A stretch of 64,000 nucleotides of DNA from Actinomycetota bacterium (GCA_039029735.1 JBCCFL010000003.1:12257-76256); one strand, 5' to 3'; counted from the stretch's first letter, positions 22,417 through 51,940 are shown. The notes: generated from the sequence alone by a model not told the origin. Translations and numbers: made by a program.

Positions 22417-23275
22417 GGTCCGGCCACGAGTGGGCGGTGAGGCTCACCAGCACCACCAGCGCCCCCGCGATGCTCGCCACTGGTGGAGCCTCGCTGAGCA
22501 CGATCCAGGCCAGTGCGATCGCCACCGGCGTCTCGGCCGAGCCGAGGAGCCCGGACTCTGCTGCCGGAATCCGCATCGTGCCCGCGATCCAGCACACCGT
22601 GGCTGCTGCGAACACCACACCGAACAGCACCAGAAGGCCGGCGTCGCGAGCCGACACGGCGAGAGGGTCGGTCATGATCCAGCCGACGGCGAAGAGCATT
22701 GGTCCACCGGCCGCGCCGGCAAGGACGCCGTCGGTGTTCGGGAATGCCCGGATGAGCACCATGTAGATCGCGTTGAGCGCCACCATCGCGAGGGCCATGA
22801 CGTCGCCGACGAGATCGGGGGATCCCGTGCTCGCGCCCACCACCAGGATCACGCCGACGAAGGAGGCGCCGGCCGCGGTCACCGTGCGGGGGCGGATGGG
22901 CTCTCCCCGCACCAGACGTTCGAGCACCGCCGCCACGAACGGGATGGTGGCGTAGATCACCGACACATTGGCCACGTGGGTGTGCTTGAACGCCACGATG
23001 AACGTGACCGACCCGACGGCACCCACTGCGGCGATGAACCAGCCCGTGGGGCCGAGTCGGAACACCTCCCGGGTCGGGCGGCCGCGCCGGCGTGCCACCA
23101 CGTAGGCGGCGACGCCTGCGCCGCCCACGAGCCCCCGCCAGGTGAGGATCGTCCAGCTCCCGGCCTCGATTGCCTTGGTCAGCACCCCAGAGCAGCTGAA
23201 CAACACCGCCGAGACGAGTACGAGAACGGGCCCGAGCCAGCGCGGCCCTGTTCGAGAGGACCAGGTACTCAACAT
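22379..23275 (-). CDS. EamA/DMT-family transporter
   Basis: Ten predicted hydrophobic helices in two EamA-like halves. Start at the ATG at 23275 (MLSTWSS). Confidence 0.8.
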   Translation of the reverse strand: MLSTWSSRTGPRWLGPVLVLVSAVLFSCSGVLTKAIEAGSWTILTWRGLVGGAGVAAYVVARRRGRPTREVFRLGPTGWFIAAVGAVGSVTFIVAFKHTHVANVSVIYATIPFVAAVLERLVRGEPIRPRTVTAAGASFVGVILVVGASTGSPDLVGDVMALAMVALNAIYMVLIRAFPNTDGVLAGAAGGPMLFAVGWIMTDPLAVSARDAGLLVLFGVVFAAATVCWIAGTMRIPAAESGLLGSAETPVAIALAWIVLSEAPPVASIAGALVVLVSLTAHSWPDLRSLRSDPTPAA

Positions 23276-23344
23276 GGGAGGAGCGTATGATCGTCTCGAT
23301 GGCTCCAGAAGCACGTTCTTCGAATCAAGAACCTCGGAATCGGT

Positions 23345-24313
23345 ATGGCTGACTATCAGCAGGGTCTGCCGCCGCTTGCCACCCTCGTCGCCTTCGAGGC
23401 CGCGCATCGCCACCGCAACTTCACCAGGGCGGCGGCCGAGCTCCACACGTCCCAGGCCACCGTGAGCCGGCGGGTGCGTGAACTCGAGGTCGACCTCGCC
23501 GTGTGTCTGTTCGAGCGGAACCGCTACGACGTCACACCGACCCCGGGGGCCGATGACTTCGCCGCCTCGGTCCGTCTGGCGCTCGGTGCGCTCGTGTCAG
23601 GAGCCGACGAGCTGCGCCGCCAGGCAGTGGGGCCCGGGGCGCTGACAGTTCTCACGAGCCTGTCGCTGGCCTCATCGGTGGTGGCGCCTGTGATCGGAGA
23701 GATGCAGCGACGCCATCCGAAGCTCAATCTCCGGGTGCTCTCGGCGTGCGAGCCGATCGAGGCCACCACCGAGGTGTTCGACCTCGCCATCCAGTACGGG
23801 CCAGCCGAGGTCGCTCGCTACGAGGTCGAGGCGATCGCCGCTGAGCAGGTCTATCCGGTGTGTGCGCCGGATCTCGCGGCCCGGTTGTCGGCACGGCCCA
23901 CCGTCGAGGCGCTGGCCGACCAGGCGCTTCTCGACGTGGCCTACGACGATCCGAGCTGGATCGATTGGTCGCGATACCTGGCGGTGACCGGAGCCGGCAC
24001 CGCCGCTGCGCTCGGCCGGGTGGCGTTCTCGTCCTACCAGCTCTGCCTCGACGTGGCCGAGCGCGGCGAAGGGGTTGCCCTCGGGTGGGACCGGTCGGTG
24101 GCGAACCGGATCCAGGCAGGCACGCTCGTGCGTGTGCCGGGGATGGCGGCCGTCGATGCGGGCGCGATCAACGCCTACCTGCCTCGGTCGGTTGACTCAC
24201 GGGCTCGGCCCGGCGAGGTGCTGGAGCTCCTGGCGTTGCTGCGAGGAGCTGTGGCCGCGAACGAGCCCGGGGAGACAGCGCCGTTCGTGCCCAGCCCGAT
24301 ACGGGAGAGCTAG
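23345..24313 (+). CDS. LysR-family transcriptional regulator
   Basis: N-terminal HTH LVAFEAAHRHRNFTRAAAELHTSQATVSRRVRELE. Divergent from the EamA transporter gene. Confidence 0.85.
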   Translation: MADYQQGLPPLATLVAFEAAHRHRNFTRAAAELHTSQATVSRRVRELEVDLAVCLFERNRYDVTPTPGADDFAASVRLALGALVSGADELRRQAVGPGALTVLTSLSLASSVVAPVIGEMQRRHPKLNLRVLSACEPIEATTEVFDLAIQYGPAEVARYEVEAIAAEQVYPVCAPDLAARLSARPTVEALADQALLDVAYDDPSWIDWSRYLAVTGAGTAAALGRVAFSSYQLCLDVAERGEGVALGWDRSVANRIQAGTLVRVPGMAAVDAGAINAYLPRSVDSRARPGEVLELLALLRGAVAANEPGETAPFVPSPIRES

Positions 24314-24322
24314 CGTCGGGCT

Positions 24323-25168
24323 ATGGCAGACGACCCAGTGGCGCGCTCAGACCTCGAACTGGTGCGGGGTACCGTGGCGAACGAGGGCGAGGACGTGTAC
24401 TGGGAGCTCGTCCGGGCTGGCCGTGACGACGATCGACCAGCCGTGGTACTCACCCACGGAGCCGGCGGCACCCATGCCGTGTGGTTCCAGCAGATCCCGG
24501 CACTGGCCGCCCGCTACCGGGTGGTGACCTGGGACAGCCGAGGCTTCGGCAACTCCACCAACCGCAACGGCACCCCCACCGCCGACGCCGCCGCTTCCGA
24601 TCTCGCCGCCGTTCTGAACACCGCAGACGTGGAGCGGCCCCACCTCGTCGGTCAGTCGATGGGGGGCTGGTTCATCTCCGCCTTCGCCACCGCTGCTCCC
24701 GAGCGCGTGCGGTCGCTCACCTACGCCGACACCGTGGGTGGGCTCTGGACTGATGCCCTGCGCGAGGCGATCGCCGCCTTCACGGCCACCGGCGGCCTCG
24801 GCGAAGGCGGCCACGGGATCGGCACCCACCGGGCGCTGTGGCCAGGCACGGCAGAGACGAACCCCGCGCACGCCTTCCTCTATCAGGCCCTGGGCAGCTT
24901 CCATGATCCGCCCATGCGCTCGCTCGGTGCGGTGCTCGAGTGGACGGTCGCCCACGACACGATCGCCGGCATCGGGGTGCCCGTGATGATGATCGCGGGC
25001 ACCCACGACCAGATCTTCCCGGCGCCTGCCCTGGCTGCGTCGTGTGCATTGATCCCCGGCGCCCGCTACGTCGAGATCCCGGCGTCGGGCCACAGCCCCT
25101 ACTTCGAACAACCGGCAGCGTGGAACGATGCCATGCTCCAGTTCCTCTCCACCGTCGAGTCGAGCTGA
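24323..25168 (+). CDS. alpha/beta hydrolase
   Basis: HG oxyanion motif (LTHGAGG), nucleophile elbow GQSMGG, and a C-terminal His (SGHSPYFEQP). Confidence 0.8.
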   Translation: MADDPVARSDLELVRGTVANEGEDVYWELVRAGRDDDRPAVVLTHGAGGTHAVWFQQIPALAARYRVVTWDSRGFGNSTNRNGTPTADAAASDLAAVLNTADVERPHLVGQSMGGWFISAFATAAPERVRSLTYADTVGGLWTDALREAIAAFTATGGLGEGGHGIGTHRALWPGTAETNPAHAFLYQALGSFHDPPMRSLGAVLEWTVAHDTIAGIGVPVMMIAGTHDQIFPAPALAASCALIPGARYVEIPASGHSPYFEQPAAWNDAMLQFLSTVESS

Positions 25169-25184
25169 CAGGCCGGGGAGCACC

Positions 25185-25709
25185 GTGAAGGCTCGACACG
25201 TGGCCGCCCGCGACGGCTGGTCGTGCTGGCTGTGCCACGAGCCCGTCGACCCCGACGCCCCAGCCGGCTCGCCGGCATCGGCGACGGTCGACCACGTGGT
25301 GCCTCGGTCACGGGGCGGGCGCACGGTGCCGGAGAACCTCCGCTTGGCCCATCGGCGGTGCAACGGCGCCCGTGCGAACCATCTCCCTGAGCTGGCCTGG
25401 CCCGGCGAGTTCGGCTTGCTCGATGCGCCGTCGCTGTGGCGTTCGATCCGGCGGCTCGGAGCCCGGCCTGGAACAGCGGAGACCGTGGCGCTGGCTCCCA
25501 CGCCAGAGCTCGCCGAGCGGGCCGGGGAGTGGGCCGCCCGGGCCGCCGAGGCGTTCGTAGGGGCCGAGTGGACCTGGTCGGTGCGCCCGACCGGTGTCGG
25601 GCGCTGTCATGTGGTGGCGCTCCGGGTCGACGGGTCCCCGGCCGATCCCGGTCGCCCCTACGAACCCGACCCACGGGCGCTGAGCCGACGTCGTCGCCGC
25701 CGGCGCTGA
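25185..25709 (+). CDS. HNH endonuclease domain protein
   Basis: CWLCHEPV...DHVVPRSRGGRTVPENLRLAHRRCN (HNH with a Cys pair). GTG start preceded by GGGGAG. Confidence 0.7.
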   Translation: MKARHVAARDGWSCWLCHEPVDPDAPAGSPASATVDHVVPRSRGGRTVPENLRLAHRRCNGARANHLPELAWPGEFGLLDAPSLWRSIRRLGARPGTAETVALAPTPELAERAGEWAARAAEAFVGAEWTWSVRPTGVGRCHVVALRVDGSPADPGRPYEPDPRALSRRRRRRR

Positions 25710-25759
25710 CACGCCGGCCCATCTGACCCGCGCCGCCCCGGCGGCTACCGTCTCGTGCC

Positions 25760-28057
25760 ATGTCACCCACGCCCATGGCGGCCCACTGGGGCGCTGCCCT
25801 GATAGACAGCGACGGGCAGCGCGTCACCGGTGTGGAGGCGCATCCACTCGACCCCGATCCGTCGGTCATCGGCCAGGGCTTCCTTGCTGCCACTGAGTGC
25901 AGGGTGATGCGACCGGCGATTCGTCGCTCATGGCTCGAGGGCGGGCCCGGCACCGACGGCGATCGCCGCGGCCATGACCCGTTCGTCGAGGTGTCATGGG
26001 ATCGGGCGCTCGATCTCGCCGCCGCCGAACTGGCGCGGGTGCGCGACGAGCACGGCCACAGTGCCGTCTACGGCGCGTCGTACGGCTGGGGCTCGGCTGG
26101 GCGCTTCCATTTCCCCACCATCCAGATCGCCCGCTTCCTGCGGATGTTCGGGGGCTACACCGACGGCCGGGGCACCTACTCCGCGTCAGCGGCCGAAGCG
26201 ATCGTGCCCTACATCTACGGCATGCCGTACAGCCGGGCGATCGCCTCTCAGACGTCGTGGTCGCAGATCGCAGCCAACACCGACCTGGTGGTGAGCTTCG
26301 GAGGTCTGCGGATCTCGAACGCCCAGGTGACCTTCGGCGGCCAGGGGCCACACCATCTCGGTCGCTGGCTCCGGGCAGGTCGTGCCCGCGGCATCGACTT
26401 CGTCAACGTGAGCCCCCTCGCCGACGATCAACTCGATGATCTCGACGCCCACTGGATCGCACTGCGACCGGGCACCGACGTGGCCCTCATGGCCGCTCTG
26501 ATCCACACGATCGTGACCGACGGTCGGGCCGACGACGACTTCCTGGACCGCTACACCCACGGGTGGTCCGAGTTGTGGGCCCATCTGGCCGGCCACGACG
26601 ACGGCGTGGCCCGCTCCGCTCGGTGGGCCGCCGACATCACCGGACTGGCCGAGTCGGAGATCGTGGCTCTCGCCCGCCGCATGGTGGCGGGTCGCACGTT
26701 GATCAACCTGAGCCTCTCGATCCAGCGGGCCGATCACGGCGAGCAGACCTACTGGATGGCCCTCGCCCTGGCATCGGTGATCGGCCAGATCGGGCTACCC
26801 GGCGGCGGGATCTCGTTCCCCATGGGATCGAACGGCAGCACCGGTTCGGGCCAGGTTCGCAAGCGGGTGCCCGGCCTCCCCGTGCCGCCTCGCCCGGCCG
26901 AGGTGGTGGAGATCTCCACGTCGCGGATCGTGGAGCTGCTCGAACGGCCCGGTGAGGTGTTCCACTTCGACGGTCGGGCCGACGTACACCCCGACGTCAA
27001 GCTCGTGTACTGGGCCGGCGGCAACCCGTTTCACCATCACCAGGATCTGAATCGCCTGAGGAGAGCCTGGGCCCGGCCCGACACGGTGATCGTGCACGAG
27101 CCGTACTGGACCGCCACCGCCAAGCGGGCCGACATCGTGTTCCCCGTCACGGGGCCGCTCGAACGCGACGATCTCGGCGGGGCCGACTCGATGCTGGTCG
27201 CCATGACCAAGGCGATCGAGCCCGTCGGTGAGGCCCGCCACGACTACGACGTGTTCAGTGGCCTCGCCGCCCGCCTCGGGTTCGGGTCGGACTTCACCGA
27301 AGGGCGCACCGCGGAGGAGTGGATCCGGCACCTGTACGACCGGTTCGCCGCCGACAACGACGGCGCGCCCGACTTCGACACGTTCTGGGCCGATGGGTTC
27401 CTGCAGCACGACATGCCGACCTGGGGGGAGACCGAGCAGGTGTTCCTCGGGCCGTTCCGCGCCGACCCGCACGCCAACGCATTGGCCACGCCGTCGGGCC
27501 GGCTCGAACTCGCCTCGGCCACGATCGAGGGCTTCGGCTACCACGACTGCGCTGGCCATCCCCAGTGGTATGAGCCCTACGAGCGCCTCGGCGGCCCCGG
27601 GCCCGAAGCGGCGCGCTACGGCCTACACCTCGTCTCGAATCAGCCGAGCGTTCGGCTCCACAGCCAGTACGACCACGCGCCGATCAGTCAGGCCACCAAG
27701 GTTGCGGGACGAGAGCCGATCCGGATCCACCCCGATGCGGCCGCGGCACGCGGCATCGTCAACGGGGGAGTGGTGCGGGTGTTCAACGACCGGGGGAGCT
27801 GTCTCGCTGGCGTGGTGGTGAGCGACCGGGTGGCGCCGACGGTGGTGCAGATGGCGACCGGCGCCTGGTACGACCCGGACGCAGCCGGCATGTGCAAGCA
27901 CGGCAACCCCAACGTGCTCACTCGCGACAAGGGCACCTCCCAGCTGGCCCAGGGGCCCACTGCCCACACATGTCTGGTGGAGGTGGAGCCCTGGCAGGGG
28001 CCACTGCCGCCGGTGACCGCCCACGAACCACCGGAGCTGATCAGCGACGACGGCTGA
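25760..28057 (+). CDS. molybdopterin oxidoreductase, BisC/TorZ-like (biotin/S-oxide reductase family), cytoplasmic
   Basis: N-terminus AAHWGA...VSWDRALDLAAAELARVRDEHG...YGASYGWGSAG, as in BisC. No Tat signal and no Fe-S Cys cluster. Confidence 0.85.
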   Translation: MSPTPMAAHWGAALIDSDGQRVTGVEAHPLDPDPSVIGQGFLAATECRVMRPAIRRSWLEGGPGTDGDRRGHDPFVEVSWDRALDLAAAELARVRDEHGHSAVYGASYGWGSAGRFHFPTIQIARFLRMFGGYTDGRGTYSASAAEAIVPYIYGMPYSRAIASQTSWSQIAANTDLVVSFGGLRISNAQVTFGGQGPHHLGRWLRAGRARGIDFVNVSPLADDQLDDLDAHWIALRPGTDVALMAALIHTIVTDGRADDDFLDRYTHGWSELWAHLAGHDDGVARSARWAADITGLAESEIVALARRMVAGRTLINLSLSIQRADHGEQTYWMALALASVIGQIGLPGGGISFPMGSNGSTGSGQVRKRVPGLPVPPRPAEVVEISTSRIVELLERPGEVFHFDGRADVHPDVKLVYWAGGNPFHHHQDLNRLRRAWARPDTVIVHEPYWTATAKRADIVFPVTGPLERDDLGGADSMLVAMTKAIEPVGEARHDYDVFSGLAARLGFGSDFTEGRTAEEWIRHLYDRFAADNDGAPDFDTFWADGFLQHDMPTWGETEQVFLGPFRADPHANALATPSGRLELASATIEGFGYHDCAGHPQWYEPYERLGGPGPEAARYGLHLVSNQPSVRLHSQYDHAPISQATKVAGREPIRIHPDAAAARGIVNGGVVRVFNDRGSCLAGVVVSDRVAPTVVQMATGAWYDPDAAGMCKHGNPNVLTRDKGTSQLAQGPTAHTCLVEVEPWQGPLPPVTAHEPPELISDDG

Positions 28058-28093
28058 GCGCTGCCTGTCGCCGTGGCGCCCGTCGAGGTGCGC

Positions 28094-28648
28094 CTAGGAG
28101 GCGATCAGGTTCTCGACCTCGGCGATCAGGCGCTCCTCGTTCACCACACCGTACGTGGTGAGCTGTGATGCGCCGTCCTCGTTGATGAACAGGAAGGTGG
28201 ATCGACCGCCGGTACCGAACCGCTGCCAGAGGTCACCGGTCGAGTCGTCCAGGTGCGTGAAGTTCCCCGTGCCCGTCAGATCGATGAAGGGCTGGAAGTC
28301 GGCCCCCGGCGCCTCACCGGCGATCCCGACGAACCTGACCTGATTTCCGAATGCTGCTTCGACCTCTGCGACCGCAGGGCCTTCTGCTTTGCACGACGTT
28401 CACCACGGAGCCCAGAACCACAGCACCAGATCCCGGTCGGCCAACTCGCCGAGGTCGAACGGTTCGCCGCTCACCGTGGTGGCCTGGGCGTCGAACGTCG
28501 ATGCCGAGATCTCGTTGAGCGCACCCGTCCCGGCCTGCTCGTCGCCGGAGCCGCAGGCTGCGGCCACGAGAGCGAGCGCAATCGCCGCTGCGGCGAGCCG
28601 TCCGGTGCGGCGGCGCCGACCTGCTCGTCGGGGAGGAACGTCATTCAT
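28094..28648 (-). CDS. TlpA/ResA-like thioredoxin-fold lipoprotein with an in-frame TGA at the first redox Cys (candidate UxxC selenoprotein, or a pseudogene)
   Basis: Lipobox LVAAAC-GSG. The frame reads ...DLVLWFWAPW-TGA-TSCKAEGPAVAEVEAAFGNQVRFVGIAG...STFLFINEDG...LIAS-TAG. The TGA is at 28400-28402. The frame stays open for 100 more codons with thioredoxin-fold character, whereas the ORF track ends at 28400. Confidence 0.6.
28361..28381 (-). promoter_or_regulatory. candidate bacterial SECIS hairpin
   Basis: The mRNA sequence GGCCCUGC-GGUC-GCAG-A-GGUC forms 8 bp with one bulged A and a GGUC apical loop. It begins 18 nt after the UGA. Confidence 0.3.
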
Positions 28649-28788
28649 GGTCCCAGTGTGGCGGACCAGGGCGAAGGAGAACCGAAAGGCGAGGCGGAAC
28701 CGCCCGAGTTCATCAGTCGATAACCCCGTGAGCACCGTCGGCGCAGTGAGCTTGCGGTGCTGAGGGGTCACGACCACAGTTGGTCGCC

Positions 28789-29433
28789 ATGGAATTCGAT
28801 CTGCACCAGGTGGACCAGCTGCTCTCGACCACGCGGGCCGTGCGCAAGCGTCTCGACCTCGAACGCCCTGTGCCTGACGACGTCTTGCTCGAATGCCTCC
28901 AGCTCGCAGTGCAGGCCCCCACCGGGTCCAACCGGCAAGGCTGGCGATGGATGGTGGTTCGCGACGATGCGAAGAAGGCGGCGCTGGCTGATCTGTACAA
29001 CAAGGCCGGCGGTGCCTACCTGAAGGAGGCGGCCGCGAGCGTCGAGGAGGGGAGCCAGACCGGGCGAGTGATGACCTCCGCCAACTACCTCGCCGAGAAC
29101 CTGCACCGTGTGCCCGTGATGGTCATCCCGATGATCATCGGCCGGGTGGAGGATGCGCCAACGTCGGGCGCAGGCCTCTTCGGCTCGATCATTCCGGCGA
29201 TGTGGAGCTTCCAGCTCGCATTGCGCAGCCGTGGTCTGGGGAGCTGCTACACCACGCTGCATCTCGGCCATGAGGCCGAGGCCGCCGAGCTGCTCGGCAT
29301 CCCGGCCCACATGACCCAGGCCGGGCTGTTGCCCGTGGCCTACACGAAGGGCACCGACTTCAAGCCGGCAGCCAGGCCCCCGGTCGAGGAGATCACCTAC
29401 CTCGACACCTACAAGAACCCGATCCGCGGCTGA
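28789..29433 (+). CDS. nitroreductase family protein
   Basis: TTRAVRKRLDLERPVPDDVLLECLQLAVQAPTGSNRQGWRWMVV is the nitroreductase N-terminal signature. An alternative TTG start lies at 28780. Confidence 0.85.
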   Translation: MEFDLHQVDQLLSTTRAVRKRLDLERPVPDDVLLECLQLAVQAPTGSNRQGWRWMVVRDDAKKAALADLYNKAGGAYLKEAAASVEEGSQTGRVMTSANYLAENLHRVPVMVIPMIIGRVEDAPTSGAGLFGSIIPAMWSFQLALRSRGLGSCYTTLHLGHEAEAAELLGIPAHMTQAGLLPVAYTKGTDFKPAARPPVEEITYLDTYKNPIRG

Positions 29434-29458: not shown

Positions 29459-30949
29459 TCACGGCTGGGCCGCACGAGCAAGGCGGAACAGATCCCGGAG
29501 CGCAGTGTCTCCGAGGCCGGCACGGGCCGCGGCGCGCCGGATCGCCCGCACCTCGGCATCGGTGAGTTCGTTGTCTTCACCAGCGGCGTTGACCAGAGTC
29601 ACGAGCCGCTGCTCGGCCGCGATGCGACCACCCCAGTTGCCGCTCACCTGTTCGGCTTCGGTCAGCAACGTCTCGGTGTGGCGTTCGCTCCAGCCGTGTT
29701 CGGCGGCCATCTCGAGCAGGCGCACCCGATCGTCGGCGCTGAGGCTGCCGGTGTGCATTGCCATCTGGGCTCGTTCGAGGAACGAGGCCTCCTGATGAGC
29801 GGCCAGCTCGTTGGCGGCCCACCGATCGGCGTTGTCGAGCTCGTCGGATCGGGCTGTTCCGCCCGAGCCAGAGCGAGGCCGGCGCCTCGTCACCACGAGC
29901 GCCGCTGCGACAGCCACGGCGAACACGAGGGCAGCGACAACAGGATTGGCAGCGATGAACCCGGCGCCGATGATGGCGAGGGCGATCGGCACACCAAGAG
30001 CGATCGAGACGACGAGCGCCACCACCTGCCCCAACAACACCGCAGGCCCTGCAACCGATCTCAGCCCGGGAATCAGCTCGGCCAACCGCACGAGGCCGCT
30101 GAGCACGCCGAAGATCCCGAGCACCGTGCCGAGCAGGCCGAGCCAGCGCACCGTCTTCTTGAGGCTGCCGATGTCGGCCGCGATCGTCGCCAGCGCCTCG
30201 TCTCGGTCGCCGGCCGCCAGGTGATGCAACACGCCGGAGTCCTCGATGAGCTCGTTGACCGTGCCGGCGTCGCGGGCCGAGGTCGTGTCAGCCACACCAG
30301 TTCTTCCGTTGTACGAACCGAACCACGTGGCCGAAGCCGGCACGGGAACGCCGCGATAGATCATTCGCTCGTCGCCCGCCCCGAGTTCGCGGCCCTTGCT
30401 CAGGTAGAGCCAGTCGCCCTGCACGTCGAGGTCGCCCGGCAGCCGGAGTCCCGCGGGGTCGATCGTCTCGAGGCCGTCGGGAAGCGCCAGTGCCGTGGTG
30501 TCGACGGTCAGGTCACCGACCGCGACGGTGGGTGGTTCGATCGTCGCCGACCGCAGGCGCTGCGACAGGCCCTCGTTGCGAGGGTTGGCCTCGAGCACCG
30601 GGCGCCATGCCAGGAACCAGTCCGTATCGCTCTCGCTGGTCGGATCACGGGTCCACGCGTAGATGTGCGTTTCGCGTTCGACTCGCAGATAGCCCCTGAA
30701 CGACTCGGCGAAGTCCCCATCGAGGGTCAGTGACTGGTCCATGGGGCCACTGAACGCGATCGTCTCGCCCGCAGATGCCTCGCGGGGTGACTGCACCTCG
30801 TTGGCGGAGGCCGCCGCCTGGTGATAGTCGAAGCGGGTTTCGTTCAGGAACAGTGCAGCGATCGCGAGGAGCAGCACCACCGGGCCCGTGACCAGGCCTG
30901 CGATCGGCGACGATCGCTTCGGGTCGCTCCCGCCTCCGAAACCGAGCAT
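29459..30949 (-). CDS. TMEM43/DUF1625-like membrane protein with an extra C-terminal cytoplasmic domain
   Basis: N-terminal TM helix followed by FLNETR, a large extracytoplasmic region, a cluster of TM helices, then a roughly 130-aa helical tail. This is a family guess from pattern only. Confidence 0.4.
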   Translation of the reverse strand: MLGFGGGSDPKRSSPIAGLVTGPVVLLLAIAALFLNETRFDYHQAAASANEVQSPREASAGETIAFSGPMDQSLTLDGDFAESFRGYLRVERETHIYAWTRDPTSESDTDWFLAWRPVLEANPRNEGLSQRLRSATIEPPTVAVGDLTVDTTALALPDGLETIDPAGLRLPGDLDVQGDWLYLSKGRELGAGDERMIYRGVPVPASATWFGSYNGRTGVADTTSARDAGTVNELIEDSGVLHHLAAGDRDEALATIAADIGSLKKTVRWLGLLGTVLGIFGVLSGLVRLAELIPGLRSVAGPAVLLGQVVALVVSIALGVPIALAIIGAGFIAANPVVAALVFAVAVAAALVVTRRRPRSGSGGTARSDELDNADRWAANELAAHQEASFLERAQMAMHTGSLSADDRVRLLEMAAEHGWSERHTETLLTEAEQVSGNWGGRIAAEQRLVTLVNAAGEDNELTDAEVRAIRRAAARAGLGDTALRDLFRLARAAQP

Positions 30950-31116: not shown

Positions 31117-32673
31117 GTGGGAATGGACGGGATCGCCCAACGCACGATCAGCTCACGTCACCGACAGATCGCCGACGAGGTGTGGGCCACACTGCCGGGA
31201 CGGGCAACGCCGTACCGAACTGGGTCCGCGTTCGGCTACGTGCGCGACCAGTCGGTGCGCCGGGCCGTGGCCGACTCGAGCGCCGTCGCCGCGGATCTCG
31301 AGGTGTCCCTTCGCGCCATCATCGAAGACGATCTGAGCGTGCCGGCGCCGGGGCTCATCGGCCCATCAGCGCCACGGGTCACGCCGTCCGCTCCGGCCAG
31401 CCCGTCCGGCAACGAGGAGCACCCGCCCAGCAGTGGCGCGGCGCAGCGGCCCCGCCCGATGTCGGTCACCGATCAGCTCCTGGCCGCGCCGGCGAGTACA
31501 GCAGCGTGGGAGAAGGCCGAGCAAGCCTGTCTTGCCCTGCACCGCGGGTGGGACGACGAAGCCGAACGGCTCTTCACCGACGCCACCACACTCGTGCCAA
31601 CCGATCCGTTTCTGTGGTTCGGCGCAGGGCTGGCCTCAGCAACCAGCGACCCGGGGCGGGCGGCCCGAGCCATGACCAACGCCAGCCGCTACCTGGCCCC
31701 GACCGATCCCCAGGGCGGGGCATACTGCGCCATCGCCGCGTGCGTGCTGTGGGAGCGCCAGGGCAACACGCCCCGGGCTCGCCGCACGCTGGAGGAGCAC
31801 GCAGAACTCGTCGATCTGCCGTGCCCGGCGATCGCGCTCCACCTCGCCCGTCTCGACGGCGAACGCACCCAGCGCATCGAGGAGGCGCTCAGCGCCGATC
31901 CGCTCGTCGAAGCGGATCTCATGGCCCTCGGGTTCTTCGAACACGACGATGCGAGGGCCCGCTGGGAGGAACGACGTCGGCGCACCGCTGAGGAGATCCG
32001 CCTGCTCGAAGACTCTGTCGACGAATTGCGCCTCGTCGACGGCGGGCCCGGCTGGGGCGCGGATCGCGACCGGGCGGATGGCTCCGACGACGAGGGCGCA
32101 CTCCCGCTCACCCGGCTCGAGGCCCGGCTCTGGCGGCGGGTGCGCACGGTTGATGCGGCCCTCGACGCTGCCCGCCACACCGTGACCGAGCGCGAGCGAG
32201 CCCGGCGGGCCAAAGAGGACGAGTTGGCCTCGGAGCTGGCAGTCGCACGCCGCGACCTCGACACGTTCGGCACGCTGCGCTTCTTCCTCGTGGGCCTGGT
32301 GGTGGCGTTGGCACTGTTGGCGGCGATGGTCTGGGGCCGGATCTTCGCCGATGCCAACCCCGACTCCGCCTGGATGATCCGGGTGGCGGTCGTGGCGATT
32401 CAGGTCGCGCTGCTCGCCTGGGCGCTGGCGGAGTTCCTCCGCGCCTGGTGGCCTCGGCGGCACTTCGCCAGGGCCCGACAGGCCCAGCTCAGGGTGCCCC
32501 AACTGGAATGGGAGGCAGCGCAGCTCCGGCGCGGCGAGTTCGACGTTCGGCGACGGTTCAACCGGGCCGCCCGCGAGGCCGAACTCCGCAAGGGTCGCAT
32601 CAGTGATCGGCGCAAGACGATCGTGCCCGCCCGCCCCCGTTTCGGAGCCCGTCCCCTCGACGACACGCTCTAG
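31117..32673 (+). CDS. hypothetical protein (helical/TPR-like region, coiled coil, two TM helices)
   Basis: Protein-like composition in this frame. The overlapping ORF at 31035-31991 is Arg/Pro-rich and was rejected. No family was recognised. Confidence 0.45.
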   Translation: MGMDGIAQRTISSRHRQIADEVWATLPGRATPYRTGSAFGYVRDQSVRRAVADSSAVAADLEVSLRAIIEDDLSVPAPGLIGPSAPRVTPSAPASPSGNEEHPPSSGAAQRPRPMSVTDQLLAAPASTAAWEKAEQACLALHRGWDDEAERLFTDATTLVPTDPFLWFGAGLASATSDPGRAARAMTNASRYLAPTDPQGGAYCAIAACVLWERQGNTPRARRTLEEHAELVDLPCPAIALHLARLDGERTQRIEEALSADPLVEADLMALGFFEHDDARARWEERRRRTAEEIRLLEDSVDELRLVDGGPGWGADRDRADGSDDEGALPLTRLEARLWRRVRTVDAALDAARHTVTERERARRAKEDELASELAVARRDLDTFGTLRFFLVGLVVALALLAAMVWGRIFADANPDSAWMIRVAVVAIQVALLAWALAEFLRAWWPRRHFARARQAQLRVPQLEWEAAQLRRGEFDVRRRFNRAAREAELRKGRISDRRKTIVPARPRFGARPLDDTL

Positions 32674-43567: not shown

Positions 43568-45364
43568 ATGCGGAGCCGGACCCGCTCATCAGGAGGTAGG
43601 GCCGTCACTAGTCCCGAGTACGAACGCAGGTTGACCGCCTACGAGAGCGGTATGGCCGAGCTGCAAGAGCAGCTGAAGGCGATGGAGGAAGAAGTCGTCA
43701 CCCTCCGCCGCCGTCTCCAGGATGCGCCGAAGCGGGTGCGAACCCTCGAGGAACGTCTCCTCGACACGAAGGGCCAGCTGGCCCAAGCCGTGAGCCAGAA
43801 CGAGAAGCTCACCTACACACTGCGCGAGGCGCGAGAGCACATCGCCGCCCTGCGGGAAGAAGTCGACAAGCTCACCCAGCCGCCGAGCGCCTACGGCACG
43901 CTGCTCGGCATGAACTCCGACGGCTCGGCCGACGTGTTCTCGAGCGGTCGCAAGATGCGGGTCGAGTCTCATCCTGCGCTCGACGCCGACGAGTTGGTGC
44001 GTGGCGCCGAGGTCGTGCTGAACGAGTCGCTCAACATCGTCAAGGTTCGCCAGCCAGAACGTTCTGGCGAGGTGGTGAGCATCAAGGAGATGCTCGACGA
44101 GGGCACCCGAGCCTTCATCGTGGGCCGAGCTGACGAGGAACGCGTGGTCGAGCTGGCCGAGCACCTGATCGGCACCGGGGTGCGAGCCGGCGATTCGATG
44201 CTGCTCGACGTGCGGTCGTCAATCCTCGTCGAGAAGCTCCCCAAGGCCGAGGTCGAGGATCTCGTACTCGAGGAGGTGCCCGACGTCAGCTACGAGGACA
44301 TCGGCGGCCTCGAGGACCAGATCGAGACCATCGTCGATGCCGTGGAGCTGCCGTTCCTGCACGCCGACCTGTTCGCCGAGCACGAGTTGCCGGCACCGAA
44401 GGGCATCCTGCTCTACGGCCCTCCCGGATGTGGCAAGACCCTGATCGCCAAGGCCGTCGCCAATTCGCTCGCCAAGAAGGTGAACGAACTCGCTGGCAAC
44501 CAGGAGGCCCGCAGCTTCTTCTTGAACATCAAGGGCCCCGAGCTGCTCAACAAGTACGTCGGCGAAACCGAGCGCCAGATCCGTCTGATCTTCCAGCGAG
44601 CTCGGGAGAAGTCCGAAGAGGGCTGCCCGGTCATCATCTTCTTCGACGAGATGGAGTCGCTGTTCCGCACCCGGGGCAGTGGCATCAGCTCTGACATCGA
44701 GAGCACGATCGTTCCCCAGCTCCTCGCCGAGATCGACGGTGTGGAAACGCTGAAGAACGTGATCGTGATCGGCGCCTCCAACCGTGAGGATCTGATCGAC
44801 CCGGCCATTCTGCGGCCCGGCCGCCTCGACGTGAAGATCAAGATCGAGCGCCCGGACTCCGATGCCGCCCGGTCGATCTTCGCCAACTACCTCACCGGCG
44901 ATCTCCCGATCCATGCCGACGAGGTGGGCCGCCACGGTTCGCTCGACCAGGCGTTGGCGTCGATGATCGATGCCACCGTCGAGCACATGTATCGGGCCGA
45001 CGACGACACCCGCTTCCTCGAGGTGACCTACCAGAACGGCGACAAGGAGATCCTCTACTTCAAGGACTTCTCCTCCGGCGCCATGATCGAGAACATCGTG
45101 CGGCGGGCGAAGAAGCTCGCCATCAAGCGATTCCTCGACGACGGGTCGAAGGGCATCTGTACCGACGATCTGCTCGTGTCGGTCACCCAGGAGTACAAAG
45201 AGCACGAGGATCTTCCCAACACCACGAATCCGGACGATTGGGCCAAGATCTCGGGCAAGAAGGGCGAACGGATCGTCTACGTGCGAACTCTGGTCGGCCC
45301 AGAGGGTGGCGACAAGACCGGTGGCCGTACCATCGAACAGGTGGCCACAGGCCAGTACCTGTAG
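43568..45364 (+). CDS. arc: proteasome-associated AAA ATPase ARC/Mpa
   Basis: N-terminal coiled coil, Walker A GPPGCGKT, Walker B IIFFDEM, and the C-terminal ...GQYL docking motif. The exact start is uncertain. Confidence 0.95.
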
Positions 45365-45406
45365 CCACAAGCGCATCCACCGAACACCAGAGGGACAGTA
45401 CGGATC

Positions 45407-46915
45407 GTGGCGATTCCGAAGATCGTTGGCATTGAAACCGAGTTCGGCATCATGGTCCGAGGCACGCCGGACTGGAATCCGGTCTCGGCGTCATCGCTGC
45501 TGATCAACGCCTACGTCGGCACCGACGTCGGCAGCGTTGATGATCGGGCCGCGCCGATCGCGTGGGACTTCATCGATGAGATGCCGGGCGCCGACGCCCG
45601 CGACTTCTTGCCGCCCGAGTTCGCGCTGCCCCCCGAGGTGGAGACCCATCTCGTGAACGCGGTGCTCACCAACGGCGCCCGGTACTACGTCGATCACGCG
45701 CACCCCGAGCTGTCGACGCCCGAGTGCCGTGACGCCTTGTCGGTCGTCCGCTACGACCGAGCGGCGGAGCTGATCCTGATCGAGTCGATGAAGGCCGCCA
45801 TCGACGCCCTGCCCCCAGGGCAGGAGGTCATCATCTACAAGGACAACTCCGATCGGAAGGGCAACGCCTACGGTTGCCACGAGAACTACCTGCTCGATCG
45901 GAACCTGCCTTTCGGGCAGATCATCACTGCGGCCACCACCCACTTCGTCACGCGTCAGATCTTCACCGGGTCGGGCAAGGTGGGCAGCGAGCTGCCAGGG
46001 GTGAGCCGGGCCGACGTGCCCTACCAGATCACCCAGCGTGCGGAGCACTTCGAGGAAGAGGTCGGGCTCGAGACCACGCTCAAGCGGCCCATCGTGAACA
46101 CCCGCGACGAACCGCACGCCGACTCCCAGAAGTACCGCCGGCTCCACGTGATCGCGGGCGACGCCAATCTGGCGCAGGTCGCCACCTTCTTGAAGGTGGG
46201 CACCTCGGCCATGATCTTCGCCATGCTCGAAGACGGTGCGCTCACCAACCGGGCCATCGAAGATCCTGTCCCCGCGATGCATCACGTGAGTCACGACCTG
46301 AGCCTCGCCTCACCCATCCGGATGGCTGATGGTCGGTCGATGACGGCGCTCGAGGTGCAGTGGGATCTCCTCGGTCAGGCCAAGGCCTGGGCCGACAGCC
46401 ACGGGCTCGACGCCGTTGGCGAGGAGTGCGGCAAGCTCGTACTCGAACGGTGGGAGCAGGTGCTCGAAGGGCTCGAACGCGACCCGATGTCGGTGGCGGG
46501 CCAGGTCGACTGGGTGGCCAAGAAGCGCATCCTGGAAGGGTTCATGGAGCGCCACGACTGCGACTGGGACGACTCTCGCCTCGGTGCACTCGACCTCCAG
46601 TACCACGACCTGCGACCGTCGAAGTCGTTGGCGGCGCGGGCCGGGCTGGAGGCATTGGTCACCGATGCCGAGGCCGAGATCGCCGTCAGCGAACCACCCG
46701 ATGACACGAGGGCCTACTTCCGGGGAAAGTGCCTCCAGAAGTTCGCCGACCAGATCGTGGCCGCAAATTGGGACTCGATCGTGTTCGACGTGGGTGATGA
46801 TCCCCTACGGCGAGTTCCCATGTTGGAGCCAGCAAGAGGTACCGTCGAGCATGTCGGGTCACTCGTAGCCGAGTCCGACACCGTCTCGGAGCTGCTGGAT
46901 CGGCTCGGGGCCTGA
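45407..46915 (+). CDS. dop: Pup deamidase/depupylase Dop
   Basis: IVGIETEFGI..., a PafA/Dop-family fold, positioned immediately upstream of pup. Confidence 0.9.
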   Translation: MAIPKIVGIETEFGIMVRGTPDWNPVSASSLLINAYVGTDVGSVDDRAAPIAWDFIDEMPGADARDFLPPEFALPPEVETHLVNAVLTNGARYYVDHAHPELSTPECRDALSVVRYDRAAELILIESMKAAIDALPPGQEVIIYKDNSDRKGNAYGCHENYLLDRNLPFGQIITAATTHFVTRQIFTGSGKVGSELPGVSRADVPYQITQRAEHFEEEVGLETTLKRPIVNTRDEPHADSQKYRRLHVIAGDANLAQVATFLKVGTSAMIFAMLEDGALTNRAIEDPVPAMHHVSHDLSLASPIRMADGRSMTALEVQWDLLGQAKAWADSHGLDAVGEECGKLVLERWEQVLEGLERDPMSVAGQVDWVAKKRILEGFMERHDCDWDDSRLGALDLQYHDLRPSKSLAARAGLEALVTDAEAEIAVSEPPDDTRAYFRGKCLQKFADQIVAANWDSIVFDVGDDPLRRVPMLEPARGTVEHVGSLVAESDTVSELLDRLGA

Positions 46916-46961
46916 CGGGCCCGAGCGGTGGTCCTCGCCGAGGAGCGCGAAGGAGATTGAC

Positions 46962-47156
46962 ATGGCCGACCGAGAGCAAGTCCGCAAGAACCCACGCCCC
47001 CAGGAACAGGACGAGATCGTCGAGGAGGCACCGAGCACGGAGCAGGGCGAAGCCCTGAAGGCCGAGCTCGACGACCTGCTGGACGAGATCGACGAGGTTC
47101 TCGAAACGAACGCCGAAGACTTCGTGAAGAGCTACATCCAAAAGGGCGGGCAGTAA
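46962..47156 (+). CDS. pup: prokaryotic ubiquitin-like protein Pup
   Basis: 64 aa and acidic, with LLDEIDEVLE...FVKSYIQKGGQ. The C-terminal GGQ implies a requirement for Dop deamidation. Confidence 0.95.
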   Translation: MADREQVRKNPRPQEQDEIVEEAPSTEQGEALKAELDDLLDEIDEVLETNAEDFVKSYIQKGGQ

Positions 47157-47172
47157 GCACCTTCACGCGGAT

Positions 47173-47209
47173 GGTCCCAGGGGTGGCACCGAGTGCCACC
47201 CCTGGGACC
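47173..47209. terminator. strong bidirectional intrinsic terminator between pup and the convergent S8 peptidase gene
   Basis: Perfect 17-bp stem GGTCCCAGGGGTGGCAC / GTGCCACCCCTGGGACC with a 3-nt loop, followed by a T-rich tract (tctgctgcttttgggtt). Confidence 0.8.
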
Positions 47210-47231
47210 TCTGCTGCTTTTGGGTTCGTTT

Positions 47232-48788
47232 CTAGTCCCAGCTGGCGTTCGCCCAGCTGTCACCGGTCCAGCTGCTTCCGGTCCAGGACGAGCCGGTCCA
47301 CGACGAGCCGGTCCAGCTGCTACCCGTCCACGACGACCCGGTCCATGAGCTGCCGGTCCAGCTGCTTCCCGTCCATGAGCTGCCGGTCCACGACGATCCG
47401 GTCCAGCTGCTTCCCGTCCAGGCCGATCCGTCGGTGCTGGTCGCCACCCAGTCCTGGGGGCTCCACGGGCCGAACGGAGTCTCGTCGGCCCTGATATCAC
47501 GCCCGTTCAGCCTGATCTTGGCGTTGCCGCGGAGGTCGTCGAGTGAGCCCCGCCCGTTGGATCGAGCGTGGTTCTGCTGGGAGTTCTTCGGCGCGGACTT
47601 CTTGACCGCCTTGTGGATGTCGAGCGTCTTGTCCTTGCCCTTCGAGGCGTGGATCAGGAGCGCCTTCACCTCGTCGGGCGTGAGCTCCGGGCGGGCGTCG
47701 AGCAACAGGGCGACCGCCCCCGACACGACGGCCGCCGACTGCGAGGTGCCCGTGGCCTTGGTAAAGCGGTCACCGACGGCGCTGGTGGGGTGGAGCTGAT
47801 CGATCGTGCCGCCGGGGTTGCGGAGGCTCACGATCGTGGTGCCGGGAGCGAACACGTCCGGCCCGCGATTGTGTTTGTCGGCAGCGCTGGCGTAGTCGGT
47901 GTGTTCCCACTTCGGCTTCTTGTCCAGACAGTTGCCGTTCTTGACCTGATCCTTGCCGACCACTGCACTCACGGCGATGGCGAACGGGTCGTGCGCCGGG
48001 CTGGCGAGCTGGGTGGTGCCACTGCCATCGTTGCCAGCGGCCACCACCACGACGATGCCGTTGTCCCAGGCGTTCTGGATCGCCCGGCTCAGCGGATCGG
48101 ACTCGTATGCGATGGACCCTGGGGCTCGATACGACAGGTTGATCACCCGGATGTTCAGGCCGTTGGCGTTTCGGTTGGCCACGGCCCAGTCGATGGCGGC
48201 GATCACCTGGGTGACGTCGACGGCGCCGGTGTGGTCGGCCACCTTGAGGTTCACGATCCGGGCATCGGGCGCAATGCCCTGGAACTCGTCCTTCTCGTGC
48301 TTTTCGTCGGCGTCGTCGGTGTCGTTGGCGGCGATGATGCCCGCCAGGTGGGTGCCATGCCCGTAGGTGTCGAGGTGGCGCACGTCGGCGTGGTCGGCTT
48401 CGAGGGAGAAGTCGGGGCCGTTGATCACCTTGTTGGGACCGTCGAGGCCTTTCACCGGTACCACTCCGGTGTCGATCAGGGCCACGTCGACGCCGGCGCC
48501 AGTGTGGCCGTCCTTCCACACCTTGTCGGCCTTGATGGCATCCGCGATGTTGTAGAGCGAGCCGACGGCGTCCTCGTGTGAGTAGCCTTCGGCGCTCGAA
48601 CACGACACGCCCTTCTTGGGGTCGCCTTTCTTGGCCTCGGCCGGGCTGGCCGTGGCCGCCAGGAGCAGCGTGGCCGCGATGGCGACGAGGACCGACCCCC
48701 GCCGTCGTCGATGACGGCGGGCGGAGCGTCGGCGTGGATCATGCGAACTGATCTGGGTCACGAGAGGGGGTATCGGTACCCGGGCCAT
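47232..48788 (-). CDS. secreted S8 (subtilisin-like) serine peptidase with a C-terminal (GSSWT)n repeat tail
   Basis: Asp (VALIDTG), His (HGTHLAG) and Ser (GTSQSAA) triad contexts. Arg-rich signal peptide ...LLLAATASPAEA. The start is taken at 48788; in-frame upstream ATGs at 48884 and 48974 lie in the 90-bp duplication. Confidence 0.85.
   Translation of the reverse strand: MARVPIPPLVTQISSHDPRRRSARRHRRRRGSVLVAIAATLLLAATASPAEAKKGDPKKGVSCSSAEGYSHEDAVGSLYNIADAIKADKVWKDGHTGAGVDVALIDTGVVPVKGLDGPNKVINGPDFSLEADHADVRHLDTYGHGTHLAGIIAANDTDDADEKHEKDEFQGIAPDARIVNLKVADHTGAVDVTQVIAAIDWAVANRNANGLNIRVINLSYRAPGSIAYESDPLSRAIQNAWDNGIVVVVAAGNDGSGTTQLASPAHDPFAIAVSAVVGKDQVKNGNCLDKKPKWEHTDYASAADKHNRGPDVFAPGTTIVSLRNPGGTIDQLHPTSAVGDRFTKATGTSQSAAVVSGAVALLLDARPELTPDEVKALLIHASKGKDKTLDIHKAVKKSAPKNSQQNHARSNGRGSLDDLRGNAKIRLNGRDIRADETPFGPWSPQDWVATSTDGSAWTGSSWTGSSWTGSSWTGSSWTGSSWTGSSWTGSSWTGSSWTGSSWTGSSWTGDSWANASWD
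47253..47432 (-). repeat. 12 tandem 15-bp coding units encoding GSSWT-type pentapeptides
   Basis: DGSAW-T(GSSWT)x10-GDSW. The units use different Ser codons (AGC, TCG, TCC, TCA). Confidence 0.9.
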
Positions 48789-48824
48789 CCGAACTTGAAT
48801 CTGGTTCGTAGGCACCACGCCCCG

Positions 48825-48999
48825 CCGCCGGGGGCGTCCCTTCGGGAGTTCGGGGCGAACTCCTCGGTCGTGGTCCTCGGGCATGTTCTGGTTCTCGGTA
48901 GGGTTGGGGTCGGGCCGCCGGGGGCGTCCCTTCGGGAGTTCGGGGCGAACTCCTCGGTCGTGGTCCTCGGGCATGTTCTGGTTCTCGGTAGGGTTGGGG
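48825..48999. repeat. 90-bp tandem direct duplication (about 1.95 copies) between the S8 gene and prcB
   Basis: Copy 1 is 48825-48914 and copy 2 is 48915-48999, near-identical by eye. Each carries the hairpin GGAGTTCG-GGG-CGAACTCC (48845-48863 and 48935-48953). Confidence 0.9.
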
Positions 49000-49003
49000 C
49001 CGT

Positions 49004-49807
49004 ATGAACCTTCCGTATTTCACGCCGGGAGATGATCCCGGGCCCAGCTTCCTCGCGTTGCTCGGCCGCTACCAGGAGCCGTTCGGGTACGACGCCAATG
49101 CGTCAGCCGAGGGGCTCGACATCCCGCACGGCACCACGGTGGTCGCCGCCAAGTTCAATGACGGCGTTGTCATCGCCGGTGACCGACGGGCCACGTCGGG
49201 CAACCTCATCAGCCACCGCACGATGCGCAAGGTGTTCTCGGCGGATCGTTGGTCCGGGGTCGCCATCGCCGGTGCTGCCGGTCCGGCACTCGAGATGGTG
49301 AAGATGTTCCAGCTGCAGCTGCAGCACTACGAGAAGGTCGAAGGCCACGCCCTCTCCCTCGAAGGCAAGGCCAACCAGCTGTCGGGCATGCTGCGAAGCA
49401 ACCTGCCGGCCGCCATGCAGGGCCTCGCCGTCGTTCCGATTTTCGCCGGCTTCGATCGCCGCCGCGGGTACGGGCGGCTCTACGCCTACGACGTGACCGG
49501 CGGCCGCTACGAAGAGGAAGACTTCGTAGCCTCCGGCTCGGGCAGCCTGTTCGCCCGCACCGTGATCAAGATGGGGTATTCGCCTGAGAATGACCGAGAC
49601 GCAGCGGTGGATCTCATGATTCGGTCGTTGTTCGCCGCGGCCGACGACGATTCGGCTACCGGTGGCCCCGACCCCATGCGTGGCCTCTACCCGATCGTGG
49701 CGGTCATCACCGCCGACGGGTTCGTGGAGCTCGAAGAAGACGACATCGCTGCCCGCTTCGAGCGCCTGCTCGACGAGTTCAGCACCCAGGGAGGTGATCG
49801 CGCATGA
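49004..49807 (+). CDS. prcB: 20S proteasome beta subunit
   Basis: Propeptide followed by the HG-TTVVA processing site (Thr1). Confidence 0.95.
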   Translation: MNLPYFTPGDDPGPSFLALLGRYQEPFGYDANASAEGLDIPHGTTVVAAKFNDGVVIAGDRRATSGNLISHRTMRKVFSADRWSGVAIAGAAGPALEMVKMFQLQLQHYEKVEGHALSLEGKANQLSGMLRSNLPAAMQGLAVVPIFAGFDRRRGYGRLYAYDVTGGRYEEEDFVASGSGSLFARTVIKMGYSPENDRDAAVDLMIRSLFAAADDDSATGGPDPMRGLYPIVAVITADGFVELEEDDIAARFERLLDEFSTQGGDRA

Positions 49808-50484: not shown

Positions 50485-50544
50485 CGGTGAGGGTCACACC
50501 GATGTGATCTCTGGCCTGTCGGGCCGAACGGCTACGGTGGGGTT

Positions 50545-51906: not shown

Positions 51907-51940
51907 CTCCTTGCGTGCCCCTGTGGGAGGGGGAGGGCCG

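Follow-up and report, generated by a model that had tools for sequence, protein, structure and literature searches.

A predicted UxxC selenoprotein of the DsbE/DsbF type in an Acidimicrobiales bacterium, and its TGA-containing relatives in Actinomycetota

A thioredoxin-fold reading frame with an in-frame TGA at the active site

A 64,000-nt stretch of DNA from an Actinomycetota bacterium (GCA_039029735.1, JBCCFL010000003.1:12257-76256) was analyzed; the entire stretch is referred to below as the window, it has a G+C content of 67.5%, and all coordinates are positions within it. On its minus strand, at 28648..28094, lies a gene for a thioredoxin-fold protein that contains an in-frame TGA codon at its active site. 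Translation from the ATG start at 28648 yields 82 codons, the TGA (28400..28402, minus strand), 101 sense codons, and a TAG stop (28094-28096). With the TGA, which is codon 83, counted as a proposed selenocysteine (Sec) codon, the complete coding sequence (28094..28648, minus strand) comprises 184 codons plus the stop. In a mechanical list of open reading frames (ORFs), the frame terminates at 28400, after ...DLVLWFWAPW. Continued past this point, it reads ACG-TCG-TGC (T-S-C) and then KAEGPAVAEVEAAFGNQVRFVGIAG...LIAS, the local motif being W-[TGA]-T-S-C. The TGA is thus position 1 of U-T-S-C, while the TGC at 28391..28393 (minus strand) specifies Cys86, the resolving cysteine of UxxC, whose column is invariant in an alignment of homologues (alignment A1).

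The 101 codons that follow the TGA (28097..28399, minus strand) form an open frame that encodes the remainder of the thioredoxin fold and is left unannotated by standard gene calling. The G+C content of this part is 0.63, 0.46, and 0.81 at codon positions 1, 2, and 3, respectively, and it thus retains the coding signature of the window. When the stop was replaced by Cys, the translation matched the Pfam families AhpC-TSA, Redoxin, and Thioredoxin. In alignment A1, codon 83 corresponded to the first Cys of the near-invariant WFWAPWCxxC motif in all 29 database homologues, where it is the nucleophilic Cys of CxxC, and the gene product could be aligned end to end both with Cys-containing homologues and with 110 TGA-containing relatives. 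A first-pass annotation of this DNA had described a single frame broken only by the TGA in WFWAPW-[TGA]-TSC, with about 100 stop-free codons past it, and had placed the TGA at the nucleophilic Cys of FWAPW-CxxC; the translation, the coding signature together with the Pfam matches, and the homologue alignment bear out these statements in turn.

The ATG at 28648 was favored over a GTG at 28777, since it yields the signal peptide and lipobox layout typical of the homologues. The TGA is no artefact of one single assembly: a Logan assembly of run SRR22824298 was 100% identical to the window over 6427 bp (window positions 22935-29361) and contained the same TGA, with the caveat that its reads are possibly shared with the window. 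A reassigned genetic code was considered and ruled out, since TGA is the main stop codon in the window, terminating 37 of the 50 genes called there.

The same TGA in relatives from many genomes

A DNA pattern, TGGTTYTGGGCNNNNTGGTGANNNNNNTGY, which encodes W-F-W-A-x-W-TGA-x-x-C, was scanned over 185,579 species-representative genomes. At least 120 matches were obtained, against ca. 4 expected by chance as estimated from base composition. Among the matches listed, 111 represented the gene described here and had TGA at the corresponding codon, and nine were obvious chance matches; the counts of TGA forms and of their hosts given below refer to the matches listed. In the TGA forms, WFWAPW-TGA-xxC is followed by 76-106 open codons with thioredoxin-fold conservation. 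Almost all hosts belong to the Acidimicrobiia (Acidimicrobiales, Ilumatobacter, Microthrix, Candidatus Poriferisodalis, and Aldehydirespiratoraceae), including marine Acidimicrobiales metagenome-assembled genomes (MAGs), and the remainder are mostly other Actinomycetota (Nitriliruptorales, Egibacteraceae, and Euzebyaceae). Some of the matches lie on complete chromosomes (for example, OZ244898.1, NZ_OZ253573.1, and OZ241331.1). Two genomes carry two copies of the gene each (L040 with L057, and L075 with L079). L-numbers here denote related 8-kb loci, of which ca. 120 were analyzed (ca. 0.9 Mb in total), L124-L126 being loci with Cys-form genes.

The closest relatives of the window gene, L010 (56% identity), L113, L002, and L038, are 44-56% identical to it, and all have TGA. 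When 111 TGA forms were placed in a neighbor-joining tree together with 60 Cys forms, the window gene and these four formed an all-TGA clade. Between the window gene and L010, 61 of 101 amino acids were identical downstream of the TGA, compared to 22 of 50 in the 50 residues upstream. Thus, the part of the gene that would remain untranslated if the TGA terminated translation is its better-conserved part, and no disabling mutations were found.

As a control for random nonsense mutation, TGA at the second Cys (CxxTGA) was sought in metagenome contigs, a much larger collection. None of the 39 pattern matches lay in a thioredoxin-like gene; the stop is confined to the nucleophilic position. In the protein database, the entries closest to the window gene all carry Cys; the gene itself is represented there by a 125-aa fragment alone, and no full-length TGA-form relatives were found. 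This agrees with the prediction of the first-pass annotation that the gene would be truncated, gene callers stopping at codon 82.

A hairpin of fixed register downstream of the UGA

In the window transcript, the UGA is followed by a hairpin, GGCCCUGC-GGUC-GCAG-A-GGUC (28361..28381, minus strand), that resembles a selenocysteine insertion sequence (SECIS). It spans nt 22-42, counted from the U of the UGA, and its apical GGUC loop (28370-28373, minus strand) occupies nt 30-33. The hairpin starts 18 nt past the UGA and has a 4 + 4 bp stem with one bulge (A38), which places the loop at a spacing of 26 nt. It is the minimum free energy (MFE) structure of the local 63-nt segment, and has a folding energy of −10.3 kcal/mol when folded alone. 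An 8-bp hairpin with a bulged A from 18 nt past the UGA had been claimed from inspection, and it is indeed present at 28381-28361. The model for bacterial SECIS (bSECIS) elements, as set out in the excerpted text of a recent review (PMC13188914), requires a loop of 3-9 nt, an upper stem of at least 4 bp, a G in the first two loop positions, a distance of 16-37 nt between the UGA and the loop, and an MFE of −7.5 kcal/mol or lower. With its 4-nt GGUC loop, 4 + 4 bp, 26-nt spacing, and −10.3 kcal/mol, the window hairpin lies within all of the limits given in that text.

To describe the hairpin in relatives, 75 nt around the UGA were aligned without gaps for 108 distinct TGA-form sequences (alignment A2). 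Two classes were apparent. In class 1 (71 of the 108 sequences, the window included), all four apical pairs are present, and a GGUC loop is found at nt 30-33 in every sequence; the layout is an apical 4-bp stem (26-29/34-37), one mismatch or bulge, and then three more pairs. The stem occurs in 35 versions (for example, CUGC/GCAG, GUGC/GCAU, CCUC/GAGG, CGGC/GCCG, CCGC/GCGG, CCAC/GUGG, and CUGU/ACAG), many of which alter the encoded amino acids in a compensatory manner. The GGUC loop spans two third-codon positions, and its invariance is therefore not accounted for by the protein.

Class 2 (29 of the 108 sequences, about a quarter) lacks the GGUC hairpin at nt 22-41 and has instead one hairpin at nt 13-29 followed in tandem by another at nt 32-48, both with compensatory variation in their stems. 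The second hairpin of the tandem has an AGGUN or AGUUG loop, with the G/U of the loop ca. 35 nt from the UGA, and its stems are compensatory as well (UCGCGC/GCGCGA, UCGAGC/GCUCGA, UCGCUC/GAGCGG, UUGCAC/GUGCAG). This class, which would be a second SECIS architecture, includes L003, L013, L015, L018, L033, L037, L072, L081, and ca. 20 other loci. Two loci, L032 and L062, combine the first class 2 hairpin with a GGUC-loop hairpin displaced 9 nt downstream.

The class 1 pairs were also evaluated over all 108 sequences with no selection. The observed pairing was 78.4%, compared to 71.0% in shuffles, and double-change cells numbered 62, compared to 23.7; neither the observed pairing nor the observed double-change count was reached in any of 500 shuffles. 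When the 3' partners were slid as a control, pairing fell to 32-54%. The hairpin thus covaries in a fixed register, with compensatory stems and above both the shuffled and the slid controls, and it conforms to the bSECIS constraints as excerpted (PMC13188914).

Conservation at the nucleotide level points to the same segment. Directly after the UGA, the window matched L010 at 39 of 42 nt (13 of 14 third positions), while in the next stretch 41 of 60 nt were identical (10 of 20 third positions). In three of the four nearest Cys-form genes, both GGUC and a helix in the same register are missing. The closest Cys form, P0002 (locus L125), has a CGGC-AGUU-GCCG hairpin in the class 1 register, within 60 nt after its first Cys codon, which may represent the fossil of a SECIS that remained after Sec was recently converted to Cys.

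Protein type, export signal, and active site

The N-terminus of the protein, MNDVPPRRAGRRRRTGRLAAAAIALALVAAA/CGSG, has an n-region, an h-region, and a lipobox (AAAC/GSG). The lipoprotein signal peptide, MNDVPPRRAGRRRRTGRLAAAAIALALVAAA/C, is encoded by 28553..28648 (minus strand), with the lipobox Cys32 at 28553-28555. At least 90% of the homologues in alignment A1 share this Cys, and a strict signal plus lipobox pattern was detected in 92 of the 111 TGA forms, most of the others showing one by eye. Given the lipoprotein-type N-terminus and the conserved Cys, the protein is most likely lipid-anchored outside the cytoplasmic membrane; its export and lipidation are predicted from sequence.

The best matches among solved structures were M. 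tuberculosis MPT53/DsbE (1LU4, E = 4e-23) and DsbF (3IOS, E = 2e-19), the aligned part being residues 54-174 (through residue 164 for 1LU4 and through residue 174 for 3IOS). Neither the window protein nor any of ten diverse members of the clade reached the cutoff of an NCBIfam model. The window protein scored 35 bits with the ResA model (cutoff 170) and 30 bits with the TlpA model (cutoff 230), and was far below the cutoff of the DsbE/CcmG model. With NF041054, a model for WAxxUGC ResA-like selenoproteins, the window protein scored 26 bits and the ten relatives 58 or less, compared to a cutoff of 300. The first-pass annotation had assigned the protein a TlpA/ResA-like character. The thioredoxin fold in that description is supported by Pfam; the closest characterized relatives are M. 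tuberculosis DsbE (MPT53) and DsbF, and not TlpA/ResA proper. The protein would act either as an oxidase, like M. tuberculosis DsbE, or as a reductase, like ResA/TlpA.

Two structural variations were observed within the family. At 28178-28192 (minus strand), the window gene encodes G-R-S-T-F, and L010, L002, L113, and L038 have G-(G/S/I)-R-S-(T/S)-F. Where this five-member clade has R-S-(T/S), all other family members and the Cys homologues have the cis-Pro motif Q-P-A-F/W; a thioredoxin-fold oxidoreductase without cis-Pro is unusual. A separate subgroup (L014, L023, L034, L068, L094, and L109) has WFWA(E/G/P)W-TGA and a long N-terminal extension, whose repeats ('TRGQMATFLHRAL', 'MATFLVRAF') resemble cell-surface (SLH-like) modules. 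The extension suggests that these proteins may be a wall-anchored version of the selenoprotein.

Probable Sec decoding and alternative explanations

We conclude that the gene at 28648..28094 (minus strand) very probably encodes a 184-residue exported thiol-disulfide oxidoreductase lipoprotein of the DsbE (MPT53)/DsbF type with a U83-T-S-C86 active site. The initial proposal that the truncated ORF conceals a UxxC selenoprotein is thus upheld by the orthologues, by the covarying hairpin, and by the lack of disabling mutations. According to this interpretation, SelB with GTP and Sec-tRNA(Sec) would be recruited by the hairpin of nt 22-42, with its GGUC loop and bulged A, and the ribosome would place Sec at the UGA instead of terminating. 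The full-length protein would then be exported, anchored to lipid at Cys32, and would work outside the cytoplasmic membrane through a selenenylsulfide/selenol-thiol couple.

Several results weigh against this interpretation. Taken alone, the window hairpin is statistically unremarkable and within the range of shuffled sequences: the fold of the 63-nt segment has a z-score of −1.4, with 21 of 200 shuffles folding equally well, and the hairpin drops out of the MFE structure when a 141-nt context is folded (z = −0.1). Rfam searches of the whole window at gathering thresholds, and of 28200-28500 at E-values up to 10, returned no relevant match. RNAalifold predicted no consensus pairs (0) for the unsplit 108-sequence alignment. 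Neither the 64-kb window nor the ca. 0.9 Mb of related loci yielded selA, selB, selD, or tRNA-Sec, and no second selenoprotein candidate was found in the window.

The significance of the hairpin comes from the comparative data and not from the fold of a single sequence, and the RNAalifold result is explained by the mixing of two hairpin classes in one alignment. When class 2 was removed from the 108 sequences, a split that is independent of the class 1 pairs, RNAalifold predicted exactly the 26-29/34-37 helix for the remaining 79 sequences. In this subset, 75-76 of the 79 sequences are paired at each apical position, and the GGUC loop is present in 75 of the 79.

The searches for decoding genes covered the window and the related loci. 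ARAGORN detected no tRNA of any kind in the window and no tRNA-Sec in the window or the loci, and tblastn searches of the window and the ca. 120 loci with the E. coli proteins SelA, SelB, and SelD yielded only weak, GTPase-like matches to the N-terminal part of SelB (in L091, L085, and L035). When the window was scanned for further in-frame TGAs flanked by coding signature in both directions, only the gene described here and two shadow frames of real genes were returned. Outside the family, 38 matches to a UGA followed 16-37 nt on by a GGUC hairpin were found in the window and loci, all of them implausible, in Arg-rich or short frames. In another order of Acidimicrobiia, Actinomarinales, a complete Sec machinery has been reported: selA, selD, a divergent selB, and tRNA-Sec are present in 84 of 84 complete genomes of Actinomarina (bioRxiv 10.64898/2026.04.03.716425). 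For the organism studied here, the intact frame and the intact SECIS of the family type point to SelB-dependent Sec decoding.

A first alternative is that the window gene is a relic, that is, that it belongs to a genuine selenoprotein family but is found in a lineage that no longer has the Sec machinery, so that the UGA terminates translation and leaves a dead fragment of 82 residues. The lack of Sec machinery genes, of tRNA-Sec, and of other selenoprotein candidates in the window would fit such a scenario, as would the patchy use of Sec among bacteria (literature as cited in bioRxiv 10.64898/2026.04.03.716425). After the loss of Sec decoding, decay of the gene or reversion of TGA to TGC would be expected, yet neither is observed. 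Downstream, all 101 codons are open and their conservation exceeds that of the upstream part, and the SECIS region, 39/42 identical to that of L010, retains the GGUC loop and the stem. We therefore consider a relic unlikely.

A second alternative is less likely still. The UGA could be recoded in a non-canonical way, either as Cys by a tRNA-Sec-like or suppressor tRNA, or by hairpin-stimulated near-cognate read-through with Trp or Cys. Here too, the lack of Sec machinery in the window and related loci could be cited in support, and about a quarter of the family has the two-hairpin element, so the details of decoding may vary. Against this, the site is the classic Sec/Cys position of a UxxC redox motif, the hairpin fits the SelB-type bSECIS constraints in the excerpted text (PMC13188914) and has the GGUC loop of fdhF, a system inserting Cys would bring no advantage over a TGC codon, and nothing specifically favors such recoding.

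Finally, the idea that an ordinary CxxC gene was recently hit by a random nonsense mutation, or was misread in sequencing or assembly, is effectively refuted, as the first-pass annotation had anticipated in calling such a mutation unlikely: although a single base change converts TGC to TGA and the closest protein-database entries all have Cys, the identical TGA is present in the SRR22824298 Logan assembly, in the four nearest relatives (44-56% identity), and in the 111 species listed, no family gene in metagenome contigs has TGA at the second Cys, and the window copy has the conserved hairpin of the family.

Genomic context

The PafA protein encoded in the window shares 88-92% identity with proteins from MAGs of Acidimicrobiales and Actinomycetota, and the source is therefore taken to be an Acidimicrobiales bacterium. 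The selenoprotein gene is flanked by a divergent nitroreductase gene (28780-29433, plus strand) and a convergent molybdopterin oxidoreductase gene (25760-28057, plus strand).

Clustering of the neighborhoods of the related loci for a conserved redox partner revealed no universal neighbor. In the Cys-form loci (L124, L125, and L126), the gene lies between a DUF3179 gene and a gene for a DsbD_TM/CcdA-like membrane protein. A CcdA-like gene is nearby in four of the 111 TGA-form loci (L032, L062, L067, and L046), and there is none in the window. In ca. 32 TGA-form loci (for example, L111, L031, L048, and L101), the gene is divergent from lpd, which is followed by a gene for a lipoyl-E2 acyltransferase; in L111, these lpd/E2 genes lie 0.5-2.0 kb upstream of the TGA on the opposite strand. 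This arrangement, which may be plain synteny, is not found in the window.

Several other features of the window can be mentioned. Three long ORFs with good coding signature, at 3058-5241 (plus strand), 29459-30949 (minus strand), and 31117-32673 (plus strand), encode 727, 496, and 518 aa, respectively, and have no match to a Pfam family at E-values of 1e-4 to 1e-5 or better; the latter two are near the selenoprotein gene, just past the nitroreductase gene. An HNH endonuclease gene (25128-25709, plus strand, 193 aa) overlaps the end of an alpha/beta-hydrolase gene by ca. 40 nt and immediately precedes the molybdopterin oxidoreductase gene; it may represent a small insertion of mobile origin. 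A complete Pup-proteasome cluster is present at 43568-52912 (plus strand), comprising genes for the Mpa/ARC ATPase, Dop, PrcB, PrcA, and PafA and a WYL-domain PafB/C-like gene; dop and prcB are separated by an inserted subtilase gene (47232-48974), which is encoded on the opposite strand. The window also has gcvH and a garA-like FHA gene. In a 563-aa ORF at 61267-62958 (plus strand), a ThyX (Thy1) domain is confined to residues 341-524, and no Pfam family was matched by the N-terminal 340 residues; the ORF may have a mis-set start or be a fusion.

Comparison with known systems

DsbE and DsbF of M. tuberculosis are secreted or lipoprotein actinobacterial oxidoreductases of the thioredoxin fold. 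DsbE (MPT53, Rv2878c, 1LU4) and DsbF (Rv1677, 3IOS) share with the window protein the WFW(A/T)PWCxxC active-site context. They differ from it in having the nucleophilic Cys where the window gene has TGA/Sec, and in the cis-Pro motif, Q-P-A compared to R-S-T in the small clade of the window gene. The cytochrome c maturation reductases ResA, CcsX, and TlpA are recognized by linkage to ccdA/dsbD or resB/resC, or by passing the cutoff of a family model; the window gene has no such linkage and passes no such model.

The hairpin can be compared to the fdhF SECIS of E. coli, where the UGA is codon 140. Both are located within the coding sequence right after the UGA, and both have a GGUC loop, a G/C-rich stem of 3-4 bp, and one unpaired base. 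In fdhF, the loop is at nt 22-25 and the unpaired base is a U on the 5' side; in the window, the loop is at nt 30-33 and an A is left unpaired on the 3' side. The identity of the fdhF loop and the displacement of the window loop by ca. 8 nt, both stated in the first-pass annotation, agree with the E. coli K-12 sequence.

Thioredoxin-fold selenoproteins with UxxC are already known, and the family described here adds to a known kind, with no new decoding mechanism. NF041054 also comprises ResA/TlpA-like selenoproteins, with Sec in a WAxxU context; its model has 354 positions and its motif is named UGC, compared to UxxC in the window protein. A UxxC family called 'thiol-disulfide isomerase-like' was predicted in 2005 in the Sargasso Sea selenoproteome from four sequences, with no taxon given in the excerpted account (PMC1088965). 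In Table 1 of the 2026 review, as excerpted, this family is placed under cd02966 (TlpA-like), and 'thiol:disulfide interchange protein' and 'UGC-containing TlpA' families are listed alongside (PMC13188914). By the published description, which is the only basis for this comparison, the 2005 family resembles the window gene in its UxxC motif within a TlpA-like thioredoxin fold, in having widespread Cys homologues, and in a marine link. It consists of four sequences, as opposed to the 111 species listed here with their lipoprotein architecture and conserved SECIS.

For Acidimicrobiia, the literature found on Sec and selenoproteins consists essentially of just the Actinomarina preprint (bioRxiv 10.64898/2026.04.03.716425). 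It may not have been reported before that the family is so broad in Acidimicrobiia, that its members have a lipoprotein architecture, and that it has two SECIS classes. More tentatively, since we rate it at slightly less than an even chance, the TGA forms could represent a large, undescribed clade of UxxC DsbE/DsbF-like lipoproteins in Acidimicrobiia and neighboring Actinomycetota, present in at least 111 species, with a fixed-register SECIS of its own and a second SECIS architecture in about a quarter of its members.

Implications

Gene callers cut the window gene at codon 82 or miss it, and the same applies in at least 111 species-representative genomes; since NCBIfam has no model for the clade, this truncation in annotation is systematic. 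A family model combined with the SECIS pattern would permit the correct annotation of TGA-form genes. In addition, the 35 stem variants with an invariant GGUC loop, together with the second class, make up a natural set of actinobacterial SECIS elements that could be used to study the rules of recognition and spacing by SelB. The understanding of Sec decoding itself is unchanged, and the result is mechanistically expected.

The findings point to widespread use of Sec in Acidimicrobiia, an abundant, though little-studied, class in marine, sponge-associated, soil, and wastewater settings, and to a selenoenzyme engaged in disulfide exchange outside the cytoplasmic membrane. If the interpretation is correct, the use of Sec in Acidimicrobiia would be far broader than the single published report on Actinomarina indicates, and redox chemistry with selenium outside the cytoplasm would be regularly found in the class.

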